Counted from the first letter of the stretch, positions 1-50,800 are shown. The stretch is DNA of 64,000 bases from an uncultured Clostridia bacterium (GCA_947628735.1 CANRAY010000001.1:10391-74390), one strand, 5' to 3'. Notes: generated by a model from the sequence alone, not told the origin. Numbers and translations: made by a program.

Positions 1-1482
1 AATGATCTGTCCATCTTCGCCTAACACATTAAATGCTGCTGCATCAACACGAATTGCTTCATATTGAATAAATGGATCCATATCATAAAATTGGCCTTCT
101 TCGTCTGAAAAGTGATCTGTATCATGTTTATAAGCTCCATCTAAAATATCTTTTGCTTCTGAATATTTTTCTGAAAATACAAATTTTTTAATTTTGTCAT
201 CATACATATAGAAATTTACAGTCCAATCCACTTTATACTTAACATCCATATTAATATTTTTATCATACATCAATCTACTATTTGTTTTAGATAATAACGT
301 ATCATCTATATCAACATTATATAAAAGCACTGAACCTTTTGGATTTTGAAGATCAATTGCAGTTGATATACTTTCAGTATTTGACTGTACTTTTTCAAGT
401 TTTCCTTTTGTATCTGTTGACCAACCCTCCAAATATGCTGTAGCTTTAAATTGAAGACTGTTAGTTGTTGCTTCTATTTTGTTATATGCATCAATAGGAT
501 ATTCCATAACGATATTGGCTTGATAAAGATTCTCATAGTAAATAACACTTCCAATACCATTATTTAATGGATTTTCCATGTGAATTTCTAAACTACCTGT
601 TGCTGAATCATAATCTACTTTAGTAATATTCTTTTTAGATGCACTTATATCATTTACATAAACAGATGTAGGATAATAATCTCCCATTTTAGGAGCATTT
701 CCTTTAATTACAGTTCCTGCATCTGGTGCCATTGCAGTAAAACCTTCTCCAGTTCTTGTAAATACATATGGATTACAAATTATATATACTTTTTCACTTT
801 TTGAATCTACAACAAAAACATTATCAGCTGCTCTACACCAAAATCCTTGTACAAATTCATATTCAATACTTCCATACCAATCAATTCTAAATTCAATTTC
901 TTTTGTAATTGTTTTAGTAACTCCATCACTTCCAGTATAATCACCTGTAAAAGTTAATTTATTAGTTTTAGAAAGAAGATTAACATCAAAAGTATTCATA
1001 TATTCTGAGTCAAAAATATTTTGTTTCATAGTAATATCTACTGGTTTATTATGACCAGCTGTCATTTCATTAAACGAAATTGTTCTACTTGTTACACTCT
1101 TGACATACTCATCTGTTGGAATATTTCTTACCATTGAGAAATTTCCATTTGATTCTAAAGTAATTTTTGCATTCTTTAATGTTCCTTGAGTATCAACTGT
1201 TAGCTTAGTTTTTAAAACAACACTTTCATTCAATTCTTGCCTAATTCCTGAATATTTTTTTCCATCTGGCGACTCAAAATATGCTTCAAATTTTACAAAT
1301 TCCGAATCTGTTTTTGATATATCACCTGTTAATTCTTCAAAAGCATCAAATGTTGCAGTTTGAGAAGACGCTGCTTCTGTTATTTGGATATTTGCAAAAC
1401 AACTTAGTACTGTTGTAACTAGGCATATTATCATAGCTATTAAAACCAAAACTTTTACTTTACTTGTTAATCTTCCCTTCAT
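1..1482 (-). CDS. Giant cell-surface protein paralog P1; only the N-terminal 494 codons are present because the gene runs off the left edge
   Basis: The ORF is open to the window edge, so it is not in the ORF track. My own minus-strand translation from the ATG at 1482 gives MKGRLTSKVKVLVLIAMIICLVTTVLSCFANIQITEAAS, a signal peptide. It continues with FVKFEAYFESPDGKKYSGIRQELNE, EFRIDWYGSIEYEF, NPKGSVLLYNVDIDD and DTDHF, all shared with the 3561-aa and 2611-aa ORFs. The RBS AGAGGT lies 6 nt upstream. Confidence 0.85.
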   Translation of the reverse strand, partial: MKGRLTSKVKVLVLIAMIICLVTTVLSCFANIQITEAASSQTATFDAFEELTGDISKTDSEFVKFEAYFESPDGKKYSGIRQELNESVVLKTKLTVDTQGTLKNAKITLESNGNFSMVRNIPTDEYVKSVTSRTISFNEMTAGHNKPVDITMKQNIFDSEYMNTFDVNLLSKTNKLTFTGDYTGSDGVTKTITKEIEFRIDWYGSIEYEFVQGFWCRAADNVFVVDSKSEKVYIICNPYVFTRTGEGFTAMAPDAGTVIKGNAPKMGDYYPTSVYVNDISASKKNITKVDYDSATGSLEIHMENPLNNGIGSVIYYENLYQANIVMEYPIDAYNKIEATTNSLQFKATAYLEGWSTDTKGKLEKVQSNTESISTAIDLQNPKGSVLLYNVDIDDTLLSKTNSRLMYDKNINMDVKYKVDWTVNFYMYDDKIKKFVFSEKYSEAKDILDGAYKHDTDHFSDEEGQFYDMDPFIQYEAIRVDAAAFNVLGEDGQII

Positions 1483-39177: not shown

Positions 39178-42100
39178 CTATTTTGTATCATTTTCTTTTA
39201 TTTTTTTAACATAAAATATTACCTTTATTATAGCTATTATGATAGTTAATATATAAATAATACCGTATACATTAATTTCTTTACCTGTTTTTACACTGAC
39301 AATAACTTCTGCATTAGATTTATTGTCTTCTAAATTGTTATCTTCATAATTTGCTTCATTTTCAAATTCTTCAATTTCTGCTGTATTTTTCTCGTTACCG
39401 AAGTTCTCACTTCCTCTTTTCCAAACTAGAGTAATAGGAAATTCCTTTGTTTCTCCCACTTCTAGTTCAACTTCTCTTTTTAAATTTCCGTTTCCATCTT
39501 CTTTCCAATCTTTTGATGTTTTTTCAGTAGCAACAAAGTATTCTGGAAGTCTTTCTATTAAAGTAGCTTTACCAGCAATTTCTCCTGTATTACTTACTTT
39601 AATATTATATTGTATTTCTACTGTTGTATTTTCCATTTCTGAACCTACAATTTCAACTTTAATTAATTTTCCATCTAATACTTTCTGCTCTTCTCCATTA
39701 ATAATTGCTTTTGTAATGGTTTTCTCTACTGCGAAATTAAATATTTGTTTTCTATAATAATAAACAATTTCTTTATCTTCCTCTGTAAATTTTCCATCTT
39801 TATTACTTGGAATTAGCTCTTCCACTAAATTATAGAACGGAATATCTCTTGGCTCTGTTTCATAATCTTCTCCAACTTCACCAGTTTGTTCATCTCTATA
39901 AGGCTCATACTCATCTGTCTCTTCGTTTTTATGTAAAATTTCTTCATCTGTTTCAACATCTTTGTATTTTACAACAATCTTTCCTGAGACTTTCTCATAC
40001 CAGTAAATAACAATTTGTTCTTCTCTTAAAAATACACCTGTTTTATTTTCTGGTTCTGGATCTGCTGCTCGATATCCTGGTATACTTTTTCTTTCTGTAT
40101 CATATGGTGTTTTAACTTCTCCTTCTAAAACAACCTCTGTTTCTAGAACATTTTCTGTTTCTTTCTCTAAAAACTTAACAATAACTGTTCCTCTTCTTTT
40201 TTTATAATGATAAATAACATCTTTATGTTCATCTCCATATTCACCCTCTGGTTCTCCTTCTACCCAGTCTACTTCATAATCTTCAAATGGATCTCCTGTA
40301 CCAGGTTTTGTTTCATATGGTGTTCCTATTGGTTCCTCTGTATCTTTTGGTGGAATAATATCATTTCCATCTTCATCTACGTGCCTTTCTGTTAATGTTC
40401 CTTTTTGTTTTACATAATAGTATATTACCTCATCCACTCCATCTGGTAATACACCTGTTTCATTTCCTTTAACACTATCATATACATATCCAGGAATTTC
40501 TTTTTGATCTGTTGGTCCATAAGGATCTCCAGCATTTCCATTTATTTCATATTGATAAGTTTTCTCTACTCCATCTTCTTCGTAAGTAATTTCTTCACCT
40601 GTGTCTTTATCTACATAATGTACAACTACTTTTCCTGGAAGATCAAAAAATGTTTCAGCATCATCTTCTACTGTATTTTTTTCTTCTGTTTCATAGAACT
40701 CTATTGTTCCTGAAACATAATTTATCATTCTCTTATCATTAAAATTCAAATCTTTAAATACTACTGTTATATCTTTGCTAAATGATATTTCATGTTCTCC
40801 GTTTGGCTCTTTAGAAGTATCAATATCATTTAATTCTATCTCCCATGTAATAGATGGTTTTAGATCCTCATAAACTCCATCAAAAGTAGATTTACTTTCA
40901 TCTATATGATATGGCAAAATATCAGTTACAATTAACTTAGCATCTCCCTTATAGTCTTTTACTATAGCATGATATTCAATATGATAAGTTACTGGTTCAT
41001 CAGATTTTTTAACTACTGTTGGCCCTGTTTTTGTTATTTCTGCTTCTAAATCCCTATTCACAAGCCAATAATTATTAGTTATTTCAATAACATCATTTGC
41101 AAGTACGATACTAGGTGTCTCATAGGCATCTAGTTCACCATCTTGTGTAGGTTTTTCTTCTATACTATATATAATTTCTATTCCTTGTTGTGTATATTTT
41201 TGTAAATTTTCAAATGAAGCTCTCCAACTATTATCATCATTTAGAACTTTCTCTTGTCCAGTATGCATTCCATTAGAAAGTAGTTCTACAGTTACACTAT
41301 TAGGTCTTTTTCCTTTTTTATTTCCATTATCATTCCATTTTTTTATTACTTCTTTTGTTACAAGATAGTTTTGTTCTACCTCTTCTGTATCTGTATCTTC
41401 TTCTGTAATTCTTTCTCCTCCAGGATCATCTGGATAATTGCTTGGATAATATAATGTTACTGTAGCATCAACAATATTTATTAATGTTTCTGCTTTATTT
41501 TGTCCAACATATACAAATTCTATATCTTTTTCAATTGTTTCTGTATATGGTTTATTTGTTGCAAATGTATCAATATTTCTTTCTTCTTCCCAAGTAATTG
41601 TTCTAGTTATTTTATCATATTTTCCACCATTCAATTTTGTTTTCTCAGATTGAATATCTATATCAGCTGGTAAAATATCTTTAATTATAATTTTAGCTTT
41701 TCCTTTATATGAATCTATTTCAACAGTTTGTTTAATATGATATTTAACAACTCCATCTTCTTTAGTTAAAACTGCAACATTGTCTCTTACACTATCTGCT
41801 TCTGCAGTTTTCTCTACATTTGTTTTTACACTAACATCCTTTAATGTATAGTAGTAAATAACAACTTGCTCTTCCTCTGTATAAGTTCCACTTTGTGGAG
41901 TTGGGTTTTTACATTCATAATTTGGATCAACTTCACTTGATGGACTTGTATCAAAGTTTTCTCCTATAACACCTGTTTTTTCTGAATCTGGTGCTAGACT
42001 ATCTGTAGTAGCTCCAAGATCACCCTTTGATTCATCCCAGAAATAATGGTGAACAACCACCTTTCCTGGTAATTCTACTTTAACACTTGCATCATCTTTC

Positions 42101-47306: not shown

Positions 47307-47798
47307 ATGCCAGTTATTTTAAAATATTTAATTACATTTGGAATCTCTATGGTACCTATTATTGAACTAAGAGGAGCTATCCCTGTTGGCGTTGGAATGG
47401 GATTATCTTATTTTGAATCATTTATTTGTAGTTTTATTGGAAATATCATTCCAATTTATTTTATTGTAAAATTCATTAGACCACTTTTTGATTTTTTTGG
47501 AAGATGGAAAATCTTTAAAAAAATTATTGATTTCGCCACAGAAAAAGCAACTAGAAACATTGAAAACAACCCACGTTTACAAAACTTTACTGCATTAGGT
47601 TTATTTTTATTTGTTGCTATTCCTTTACCTGGCACAGGTGCATGGGTTGGATCACTAATTGCTAATTTTCTAAATTTACCACCTAAAAAAGCTATTCCAC
47701 CAATTGTAGCCGGTGTATTTACTGCAGGAGTTATTGTTTTATCAATTACTGCAGTTGCTGCTGGTGGTATTCAAGCTATTTTTACACATACAATGTAA
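47307..47798 (+). CDS. Small polytopic membrane protein of the COG2426 / small multidrug export-like family
   Basis: 163 aa with about 4 TM segments. MVPIIELRGAIPVG and LPGTGAWVGSLIA are characteristic of that family as I recall it. It is the only plus-strand gene between P2 and P3. Confidence 0.6.
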   Translation: MPVILKYLITFGISMVPIIELRGAIPVGVGMGLSYFESFICSFIGNIIPIYFIVKFIRPLFDFFGRWKIFKKIIDFATEKATRNIENNPRLQNFTALGLFLFVAIPLPGTGAWVGSLIANFLNLPPKKAIPPIVAGVFTAGVIVLSITAVAAGGIQAIFTHTM

Positions 47799-47884: not shown

Positions 47885-50800
47885 TTACAACTTTGCCTCT
47901 GTTTTACGTTTATAGAAAATTATGACTTCTGTAATTGATACTACAATAGCAATTATATAGACAATAAAGAATGTATAACCTGGAGCACCTGTTTTAACAC
48001 TCATAACTACTTCTGCCTCTGATGTATTATCTTTCTCGTTATTATCATCATAATGAGCATCATTATCAAAATCTTTTATCTCTGCTGTATTTATCTCTCT
48101 ACCAAAGTTTGCACTTCCTCTCTTCCATGTTAATTTTATTGTAAATTCTTTTGTTTCTCCTGGTTCTAAGCTTACTTCTGCCTCTAAGTTTCCATTTTTA
48201 TTTTCTGTCCACTCATCATATACTTCTTTTCCGATAGTAAAATGCTTTGGTAGTTTTTCTAATACTGTCGTCGTTCCTGCAATTTCTCCTGTGTTTGTTA
48301 CTCTTATCTTATATGTGATTTCTACGTCTGTGTCTTCCATTTCAGAACCCACAATCTCTACTTTTATTAGTTTTCCATCTAATACTTTCTGCTCTTCTCC
48401 ATTAATTACTGCTTTCGTTATTACTTTATCTACCTTAAAGTTGAATGTCTGCTTTCTATAGAAGTAAATTACTTCTTTATCTTCTTCTCCAAAGAATCCA
48501 TCTTGGTTTGTAGGTAATAATTCCTCTACTAAATCATAATATGGTATATCTAATGGGTCTGTTGTATATGGATCTCCTACATCTCCGGTTTGTTCTTCTC
48601 TATATGTCTCATATTCTCCTGTGTCTTCATCTGGATATAGAATTTCTTCTCCTGTATCTACATCTACGTGTTTTGTTACTACTTTTCCGCCAGGAATTCT
48701 TTCATAATAGTATTTTACGTAAGTATCTTCTTTCGTTACTATACCATTCTTATTATCTGGTTCTGGATCTGCTCTTCTATAGTTTGGTATATTTTCTCTT
48801 TCTGTTGTATACTCTTCTCCTATTGGATATTTTTCAACTTTTTCTGGTAATAATTCTTCTTCTGTATCTTTTTCTAAGTATTGCACAATTACTGTACCTA
48901 CTTTTTTCTTATAGTGATATACTACTTCTCCTCCTTCTTCTGTTAATGTACCATCTGTTTCTCCTTCTACATAGTCTAATTCATAGTCATCAAAATCTTT
49001 TGGTTCTGTATGATATGGATCTCCTATTTTTCCTGGTTGTCCTTCCCCTGGTATACGTTCTGGTGTAGCTAAATCGTTTCCGTCTTCATCTACCCATCTT
49101 ACATCAATACCTGGCGTTTCCTCATTAACATAGTAGAATGTTACTTCTATAGTACCGTCTTCATATACTCCGAATTCATTTCCTTTTACAGAATCAAATA
49201 CATAACCTGGAATAATTTCTTTTCTTGCTGTATATGTATCTCCTACTCTTCCTTCTTCCTCATATTTATATTCTTGTTGCACGCCATCTACTTCATGAGT
49301 AAGTTCTTCTCCTGTTTTCTTATCTTTATAATGCACTATCAATTTTCCTCTAATATCAACTGGTGTAGTTTCAATATCTGTTACTACATTACTTGAATTA
49401 TTTGCATAAAGGTCTAATATTGCATCTACTTTATTTGAAAGACTATTAATACTACTATCAATATCATTAAATACTAACACAATATTAGTTTTGAATTGAA
49501 TTGAATAATTACCATTTTCATCTGTATTAATATTATTCATTGAAATTTCCCATGTTATTGTATTTGTATTTTCATCATAAACACCTGTATAAGTACCATC
49601 ACTTAATACAGAGCTTTCTGCATCAATATGATATGGCAAATAATCAATAATCTTTAATTTAGCATCTCCACGGTAATCTGTTAATGTTGCTTGATAATTA
49701 ATAGTATAATTTACACCTTCTCTAAATGATGTTATCTTTTCTGGTCCATCTTTATTTATTACTGCATCAATATTTTCAGCTATTGTTCTGTACCTATTTG
49801 TAATAATAATTGGATTTTCACCAGACAATGTTGGTGCCTCATAAAATAGTAAATCTTCTGGATTTGCTTCTATTTCTTCAACACTATACACAATTTTATT
49901 TCCTAAAGCAGAATATTTATCTAAGTTTTCAAAAGTTGTGGTCCAATTATTTCCTGCATTTAATACAGCTCTTTTATCTGTTCTAACTCCATCTGCAATT
50001 AATTCAACAATTATACTTGATGGTCTTTTTCCATTATGATCATCACCATCTTCCCAAACTTTTTGAACAGCTTGATTTACTATGTATTTTTGCTCTACTG
50101 TTTCCTTATCTTCTTTTTCATCAACTTTTCTTTTTTCATTTGGTGCTGGTGTATAATTCTCTGGATTATATAATATAACTTTTGCATTAACTTTATTTTC
50201 TAATGGTAATAAAACATTTTGATCTTCATATACAATTTCTATATTTTTACTAATTGTTTCTTCATATATTCCATCTGTAAATGTATCGATATTCTTTTCA
50301 ATTGTCCATGTAATTGTTCTACTCTCAGGATGATATGTTCCACCATCTAATTTTGACGCACCCTTATTAATAGCAGCTGGTAAAATATCTTTTAATGCAA
50401 TTGTTACTTTTCCTTTATATGTATCCACTTTTACTTTTTGTGTAATATTATATTTTACGACACCATTTTCTTGTGTTAATACTTTAATTTCTGCTGTCTT
50501 ATCCACGCTATTTTCTATTGTAGGATCCTTCAATTTATAATAATAATTTGCATGTTTAGTTTCTTTTTCTCTAATTCCTGTATGATTGTCACTTTCTGGT
50601 TCTGGATTAATACATTCATAATTTGGATCAAGTTCTTCACCTGTTAATGGACTAGTAGTATAAGTTTCTCCAACTAAGCCAGGTGCTAATTGTCTATCTT
50701 CTACTAATTTGTCAGTTGTTCTTCCACCTTTATCTTCATCATATATATAGTGGTGTACAATAACATCTCCTTGAATCTCTAAATTAGCTGAATGATTATC

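Follow-up and report, generated by a model that had tools for sequence, protein, structure and literature searches.

A proline-less, putatively sortase-type anchor signal in giant adhesins of a family of uncultured gut Clostridia

Sortase substrates are predicted genome-wide via LPXTG-like motifs. In Clostridioides difficile the sortase SrtB uses (S/P)PXTG, and NVQTG has been proposed as the signal of the protein CbpA. However, SrtB does not cleave NVQTG in vitro according to two studies (PMC4155245, PMC4371152), and CbpA is treated as not being a true substrate (PMC5569036). The class B sortase Spy0129 of Streptococcus pyogenes accepts (E/Q/V)(V/P)PTG, with Val at the same position as in the element described below (PMC3019223), and sortase D of Clostridium perfringens (CpSrtD) prefers LPQTGS (PMC4498605). 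Here we consider the motif SVKTG at the C-termini of two giant surface proteins, P2 and P3, encoded on a 64,000-nt stretch of DNA from an uncultured Clostridia bacterium (GCA_947628735.1 CANRAY010000001.1:10391-74390; the whole stretch is called the window, and positions in it are counted from its first letter). A preliminary description of the window had named both (S/P)PXTG and NVQTG as motifs of SrtB substrates; the first of these stands, but the second does not in this form, in view of the in vitro studies quoted above. Our preferred interpretation, to which we assign a probability of about 60%, is that SVKTG represents the local version of a sortase-type anchor signal without proline, and that this signal is served by a CpSrtD-like sortase which is specific for the family of this bacterium and is encoded elsewhere in the genome.

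The terminal module and its motif

P2 ends with ...AEVIVSVKTG / KEINVYGIIYILTIIIAIIKVIFYV / KKIKENDTK and P3 with ...AEVVMSVKTG / APGYTFFIVYIIAIVVSITEVIIFY / KRKTEAKL, each followed by the stop codon; the stretch spanning the module signal reads ..AEVIVSVKTGKEIN... As the preliminary description had stated, both complete paralogues close with SVKTG, a hydrophobic helix and a Lys/Arg tail; the hydrophobic segments measure 22–23 residues, and the coordinates given there for SVKTG in P2 and P3 are confirmed (Table 1). This is the three-part layout of an LPXTG-type sorting signal, and the pentapeptide in it is indeed non-canonical. The Gly is followed by 34 residues in P2 and by 33 in P3. At their N-termini both proteins have a Lys-rich n-region and then hydrophobic residues, which by reading of the sequence looks like a signal peptide, and their content of DUF11, Cna_B and MucBP domains is typical of Gram-positive fibrillar adhesins.

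Since P2 and P3 are paralogues, their two copies of SVKTG are not independent of each other. The conservation of the element across diverse relatives is evidence independent of this paralogy. With the last 187 residues of P2 as query, a search against 1.84 billion cluster representatives gave 1376 matches at E <= 1e-3, 609 of them also at E <= 1e-10. Motif statistics were derived from the best 150 of the 1376 relatives, with one representative per 50%-identity cluster. Nearly all of these 150 matches stop within a few residues of the protein end, and the proteins themselves are mostly very large. The module so defined consists of a DUF11/CARDB-like immunoglobulin (Ig) domain, followed by [S/T/G/A/N]-[I/V]-x-T-G, a transmembrane (TM) helix and a basic tail. 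Counted from the Gly as position 0, the aligned upstream part has conserved D-N at -14/-13, Ser at -11 and Ala at -9, and then three hydrophobic residues. Position -4 is S, T, G, A or N, position -3 is I or V in 143 of the 150 sequences and position -2 varies freely (K, S, E, A, R, G, Q). Thr is found at -1 in 145/150 (97%), otherwise Ser, and Gly at 0 in 149/150 (99%). The commonest form is SIKTG, with SVKTG second; NVSTG and SVQTG are also present. Not one of the 150 relatives has Pro at the Pro position of LPXTG. The hydrophobic helix and basic tail after the Gly have a median length of 34–35 residues, close to what is seen in P2 and P3. Rare variants exist as well: VKSG (4/150), IKTD (1/150) and, in a metagenomic relative (L012:4860-5429), ..LLIAISPG with Pro for Thr. 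These could be natural non-cleavable forms.

The terminal domains match Pfam DUF11 (PF01345) above its gathering score (25.2 and 31.9 versus 24.6 bits). An AlphaFold2 model, computed from a 15-row alignment of sequences from the window, the genome and metagenomes, shows a beta-sandwich with a pLDDT (predicted local distance difference test) of 88, for which the top Foldseek match is the CARDB domain 3idu. In this model the last strand comprises query residues 141–151 (KSNAEVIVSVK); T-G follows directly, then a six-residue linker of low confidence and the helix. The conserved I/V would be explained by its packing in this last strand, and since S-V-K lies inside the strand, the free element is, according to the model, essentially Thr-Gly. 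The dipeptide does not belong to the fold as such, because none of the internal DUF11 repeats of P3 (P0002) ends in TG when read from the sequence.

Within the family, tandem giants of about 1700 amino acids (aa) are kept. The A-type carries the module, and the B-type ends with xPPTG or KPTG (ILTGTG in the genome of the window, termed G000). Tandem pairs lie at G000:C1:90805-101505, at G332:C1:33858-44621 and in loci L145, L146 and L148. In the related genome G332 the module proteins have MPRTG, LMSTG and TVVAG at the aligned position and the B-type partner has MPPTG, and altogether the B-type partners end with MPPTG, LPPTG, HPPTG or TKPTG. Furthermore, the exchange of Thr for Ala before Gly in TVVAG parallels the canonical IPQ[T/A]G signals of G000. 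The occurrence of Pro-containing, LPXTG-like motifs at exactly the same site is the strongest in silico argument for regarding the TG of the module as that of a sortase signal. These variants also bring to mind the range accepted by S. pyogenes Spy0129, which serves as a precedent.

None of the curated models recognizes this signal. For P2 and P3 neither TIGR01167 (LPXTG anchor) and the other NCBIfam models nor Pfam Gram_pos_anchor (PF00746) gave a match at E <= 1, and one paralogue reached 13.6 bits with PF00746, below the cut-off of 20. The positive control, a small canonical LPQTG protein encoded in G000, did pass TIGR01167 (16.7 versus 15.9 bits). A literature search for 'SVKTG' returned nothing relevant.

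Table 1. Features of the window that relate to the giant surface proteins
Feature	Position	Strand	Remarks
P2 (P0001), giant surface protein, 2611 aa	39178..47013	-	signal-like N-terminus; DUF11, Cna_B and MucBP domains; terminal module
P2 terminal DUF11/CARDB-like Ig domain, residues 2425-2575	39289..39741	-	last predicted beta-strand passes through S-V-K
P2 SVKTG	39283..39297	-	putative scissile bond Thr/Gly
P2 hydrophobic segment INVYGIIYILTIIIAIIKVIFYV, 23 aa, internal Lys	39208..39276	-	predicted helix, residues 158-186 of the 187-aa query
P2 basic tail KKIKENDTK	39181..39207	-	translated sequence
P3 (P0002), giant surface protein, 3561 aa	47885..58570	-	10 DUF11 repeats, Cna_B, MucBP; same terminal module as P2
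P3 SVKTG	47987..48001	-	translated sequence
P3 hydrophobic segment YTFFIVYIIAIVVSITEVIIFY, 22 aa, internal Glu	47912..47977	-	translated sequence
P3 basic tail KRKTEAKL	47888..47911	-	translated sequence
Third paralogue, 3933 aa (G000:C1:119-11920), N-terminal part	1..1482	-	C-terminus beyond the window: SVKTG, TM segment, RKIKLK
Small multidrug-export-family gene (PF06695)	47307..47798	+	lone gene between the P2 and P3 adhesin genes

The genes of P2 and P3 neighbour a two-component system and are located immediately upstream of rpoB and rpoC. When the helices of the closest paralogues are compared (39208-39276, 47912-47977, G000:C1:119-11920 and C2:101410-108312), a charged residue is seen at the same mid-helix site (..AIIKVIF.., ..SITEVII.., ..AIIEVIA.., ..AIAEVIV..).

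A family-wide candidate sortase

The G000 genome (1.31 Mb, 28% GC, 95% complete) contains nine sortase genes, namely eight Pfam sortase matches and a second class B copy. The preliminary description had noted that there is no sortase gene in the window; this holds, and it extends to the whole of the 189-kb contig C1 from which the window is taken. It had also named, as findings that would speak against a sorting signal, a genome lacking sortases, or the lack of other proteins with the motif together with evidence that the C-terminus serves as a membrane anchor only. With nine sortases and seven proteins sharing the signal, neither is the case. These seven come from a scan of C-termini, in which 286 open reading frames (ORFs) had a C-terminal hydrophobic stretch with a basic residue. 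Among the inspected ORFs of at least 150 aa, only seven have h-x-T-G immediately ahead of the helix, and each of these is a giant of the P2/P3 kind, with the module or the B-type variant (SVKTG three times, GVKTG, SLVTG, SIVTG and ILTGTG). About 11 further proteins are canonical substrates with [I/L]PQ[T/A]G, MPDTG or LPRTG, four of which adjoin their own sortase. Two of the sortase-adjacent substrates, with IPQAG (G000:C3:100240-100944, L007) and MPDTG (G000:C6:18633-19697, L003), have sub-threshold matches to cohesin (22.9 and 16.2 versus 24.1 bits), which hints at cohesin-like surface scaffolds.

Sortases of G000 and five other genomes of the family were compared by tree and by gene neighbours, and five kinds could be told apart: the C19-type (by a ksgA-like gene), the C11-type (by HIT and alaS-like genes), the C25-type, the C2-type and class B. 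The C25-type adjoins a small LPQTG protein, and the C2-type a protein ending with LPxTG plus one residue, without a helix. In G000 the latter is a compact sortase followed by a protein ending in ..TLPRTGY and stop (G000:C2:59600-61572, L002), and in G227 the neighbour ends in ..KLPVTGM and stop (L038), in both cases without helix or tail. The two class-B-like genes, adjacent to each other on contig C13 of G000, score 139 and 152 bits and so stay below the cut-off of 153.75. They lie (G000:C13:422-3455, L008) beside a 378-aa protein with a C-terminal helix (..NGLENTEVVIATAM..) which has no obvious xPxTG motif, and the neighbour of the G146 counterpart (L042) carries NPKTG. As the general enzyme for the module, class B sortases were ruled out, since the module persists in G332 and G227, two genomes of the family that have no class B gene.

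Within the class, the module is essentially a property of one family. In a class-level sample of 300 genomes it was found in all seven other genomes of the family, once weakly elsewhere, and in none of three genomes of the sister family. In a family sample of 61 genomes from 50 genera (genome size 0.9–1.9 Mb) it is present in 61 of 61, in 1–10 copies, next to a repertoire of 3–15 sortases each. Among the sortase kinds only two are family-universal, with full-length orthologues of the C19-type in 58/61 and of the C11-type in 60/61 genomes. The three genomes without a full-length C19-type (G333, 95% complete; G329, 89%; G321, 81%) have catalytic-domain matches only. Within the class sample, full-length orthologues of both kinds were restricted to the family of the window, with 0/3 in the sister family; full-length forms of the module had the same restriction. 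Because the C19-type and the C11-type are equally family-restricted, class-wide profiling cannot separate them. G332 (98% complete) has three module proteins, one C19-type and two C11-type sortases; since it retains canonical as well as module substrates and both sortase types, the enzyme is not identifiable by elimination either.

Gene order is more informative. The C19-type candidate of G000 lies outside the window (G000:C19:1063-1803); it is CpSrtD-like, is not assigned to a class by NCBIfam and belongs to a well-supported clade (99/96). In five genomes its orthologue is found within a few kb of giant-adhesin genes, and in four of these, from three genera, it is directly adjacent to them. 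In G348 the order is ksgA, A (1695 aa, ISVKTG), B (1690 aa, TKPTG), sortase, giant (1438 aa, TVSTG). G307 has A (ISIKTG), B (MPPTG), one gene, sortase and giant (GVSTG), G313 has ksgA, A (SVETG), B (LPPTG) and sortase, and G146 has ksgA, giant (2336 aa, HPPTG) and sortase. In G334, which belongs to a fourth genus, a single gene stands between the sortase and a giant with SIKTG. An A/B pair thus stands between ksgA and the C19-type sortase in some genera. In G000, G332, G227 and G056 the sortase follows ksgA and the giants are located elsewhere; in G000 the nearest module gene codes for the SIVTG protein, 16 kb off on contig C19. By a rough estimate, chance would account for only about 0.3 direct adjacencies in 58 genomes; such adjacencies were seen in three genera. 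A C11-type gene was not found near any listed module gene. A scan of metagenomes with the module alignment yielded eight loci, with no sortase in their flanks. The genera with adjacency may be close kin, and the gene-order link is therefore suggestive only; to this extent, it favours the C19-type over the C11-type as the enzyme of the module. Among solved structures the C11-type is nearest to class A sortases, and the closest solved relatives of both kinds would fit a division of labour between them.

From these data the following scheme can be proposed. The giant adhesins would be exported via their N-terminal signal peptides and retained in the membrane by the C-terminal helix and basic tail. 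A sortase would then cut between Thr and Gly and transfer the protein to the cell wall. The C19-type sortase (G000:C19:1063-1803) is the best candidate for this step, while the class-A-like C11-type, as the second family-wide clade, would serve the unlinked canonical [I/L]PQ[T/A]G proteins.

Alternative readings and implications

In this scheme the data show the architecture, the conservation, the set of sortases and the link by gene order, while cleavage, wall linkage and the pairing of enzyme and substrate are inferred. Several observations weigh against it. The signal lacks the Pro of LPXTG, the preference of CpSrtD is for LPQTGS, and the nearest motif in the literature, the NVQTG of CbpA, is the one that SrtB leaves uncleaved in vitro. 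In 53 of 58 genomes, G000 included, the C19-type sortase is not adjacent to a module gene. As module and sortase co-occur in one lineage only, where the C11-type is distributed alike, this co-occurrence carries little weight. According to the structural model, S, V and K lie within the last beta-strand, so that SVKTG may not be a free pentapeptide and a sortase would need fraying of the strand or a different mode of recognition. Finally, in some subfamilies the part behind the Gly looks conserved. About 22 of the 150 relatives have in common a cytoplasmic tail of the form ..(K/R)KGP.I(K/N).I(K/R)FL(N)K and about 11 a longer one, YEYE.Y.KER...V.L.G.NVV.KK (..GP.I..I.FLNK or YEYE tails are seen, for example, in P0010, P0014, P0016, P0034, P0045 and P0050, and in P0044, P0064, P0069 and others), and 43 of 152 sequences have a charged residue within the helix core, among them P2 with its Lys and P3 with its Glu. 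Such features are unexpected for a segment that is discarded and would fit a lasting membrane anchor.

The main rival to a sortase signal is accordingly a plain, uncleaved membrane anchor, in which the I/V packs in the strand and Thr-Gly forms a conserved cap or hinge between Ig domain and helix. We regard it as unlikely, though clearly the most serious of the alternatives. Simple C-terminal membrane anchors are known from other giant adhesins, e.g. Ebh of Staphylococcus aureus. The predicted course of the strand through S, V and K, the conserved tails and charged helix residues with the lasting role they suggest, the behaviour of NVQTG in vitro, the silence of all curated sorting-signal models and the lack of a sortase beside the module genes of most genomes would all be in keeping with it. 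However, a hinge leaves the 97% conservation of Thr unexplained, as it does MPRTG and xPPTG at the exact site in orthologues and partners and the presence of one sortase clade in the same gene cluster across several genera; furthermore, the internal DUF11 repeats do without TG. For these reasons we prefer a sortase-type signal, as the preliminary description had done in assuming an unusual sortase. Layout, motif, the nine sortases, the seven proteins and the gene-order link speak for its view, while the NVQTG precedent has to be given up, the model places S-V-K inside a strand and cleavage is putative. As a separate observation, the conserved tails could dock on the cytoplasmic N-terminus of the C19-type sortase, which is itself conserved (MNQILV.EK.YVTPELKRK..).

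If a sortase is at work, the strand and the motif might be reconciled by assuming that the C19-type clade reads Thr-Gly in its structural context, at a domain edge next to a membrane helix, instead of a free L-P-x-T-G peptide. We put this forward as a tentative idea with odds well below even. If true, it would represent a new mode of substrate recognition by sortases, used by more than 1000 giant adhesins of uncultured gut Clostridia.

It is improbable that, beyond anchoring single proteins to the wall, the sortase signal serves to couple giants of the A- and B-type with one another or to assemble them into a fibre, by pilus-like transpeptidation to Lys. The order A, B, sortase and the pair x[I/V]xTG/xPPTG do resemble the FCT pilus of S. 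pyogenes with EVPTG (major pilin) and VPPTG (Cpa), and Cna_B and DUF11 stalk domains are present. Yet the sortase is closest to CpSrtD and not to class B, it reaches 73.5 bits for class C where the cut-off is 160, no pilin motif or acceptor Lys was identified, P2 and P3 are located outside any A-B-sortase cluster and proteins of 1700–3900 aa are unlike pilins. Processing of Thr-Gly by another enzyme, be it a non-sortase protease or a new family-specific sorting system, appears least likely of all: the motif is unlike all curated sortase signals and many family-specific genes are distributed like the module, but no rhomboid or exosortase was found in the 95%-complete G000, T-G is the exact scissile pair of sortases and the linkage to a sortase gene is the simpler explanation.

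This study adds an enzyme candidate, derived from gene order; it also shows that motifs with Pro can stand at the site of SVKTG, that S-V-K falls within a strand of the structural model and that CbpA is not homologous (see below). Throughout a family of gut Clostridia, which are abundant, uncultured and have small genomes, the module marks the largest surface proteins, and its signal is invisible to the curated models. If a sortase processes this signal, the known range of specificity would come to include motifs that lack proline and lie within a folded domain, the family's surface proteome could be predicted and the new pair of enzyme and motif might serve protein ligation. If no sortase does so, the near-invariant Thr-Gly needs another explanation.

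Comparison with known systems

With the LPXTG signal (TIGR01167/PF00746) the module shares the N-terminal signal peptide of its proteins, a Thr-Gly about 33–35 residues from the C-terminus, the helix and the Lys/Arg tail, and like genomes with LPXTG signals, that of the window encodes several sortases. It differs in having a small polar residue and Ile/Val where Leu-Pro stands. Moreover, the motif has no linker; it runs on from the last strand of the folded DUF11 domain and lies in part within that strand.

CbpA of C. difficile (CD3145) resembles the module in that a proline-less [N/S]-V-x-T-G precedes a helix and a basic tail. In contrast to the module, its NVQTG comes after long low-complexity repeats of Asp, Gly, Asn and Pro (L009, P0153), with no DUF11 domain; therefore, the resemblance is at the level of the motif only and CbpA was rejected as a homologue. 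A sortase remnant downstream of CbpA was not found in the strain examined (L009). The (S/P)PxTG of C. difficile SrtB has Pro as its second residue, where the module has Val or Ile.

The FCT pilus of S. pyogenes is similar in two respects: Val stands three residues before the Gly, and the motif follows directly after the last Ig-like strand. FCT pairs EVPTG with VPPTG, just as the family studied here pairs x[I/V]xTG with xPPTG, in some genomes with the sortase in the same cluster. On the other hand, the A-type signal is without Pro before Thr, the candidate enzyme is CpSrtD-like and not class B, and the substrates are adhesins of 1400–3900 aa instead of pilins, with polymerisation not indicated.

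Sequence identity between the C19-type candidate and CpSrtD is low, and the candidate stays below every NCBIfam class cut-off. Nevertheless, C. perfringens sortase D (PDB 4D70, PMC4498605) is its closest solved relative (E = 1e-15), and CpSrtD is encoded beside its own substrate; orthologues of the candidate lie directly beside genes of putative substrates in four of the 58 genomes that have one.

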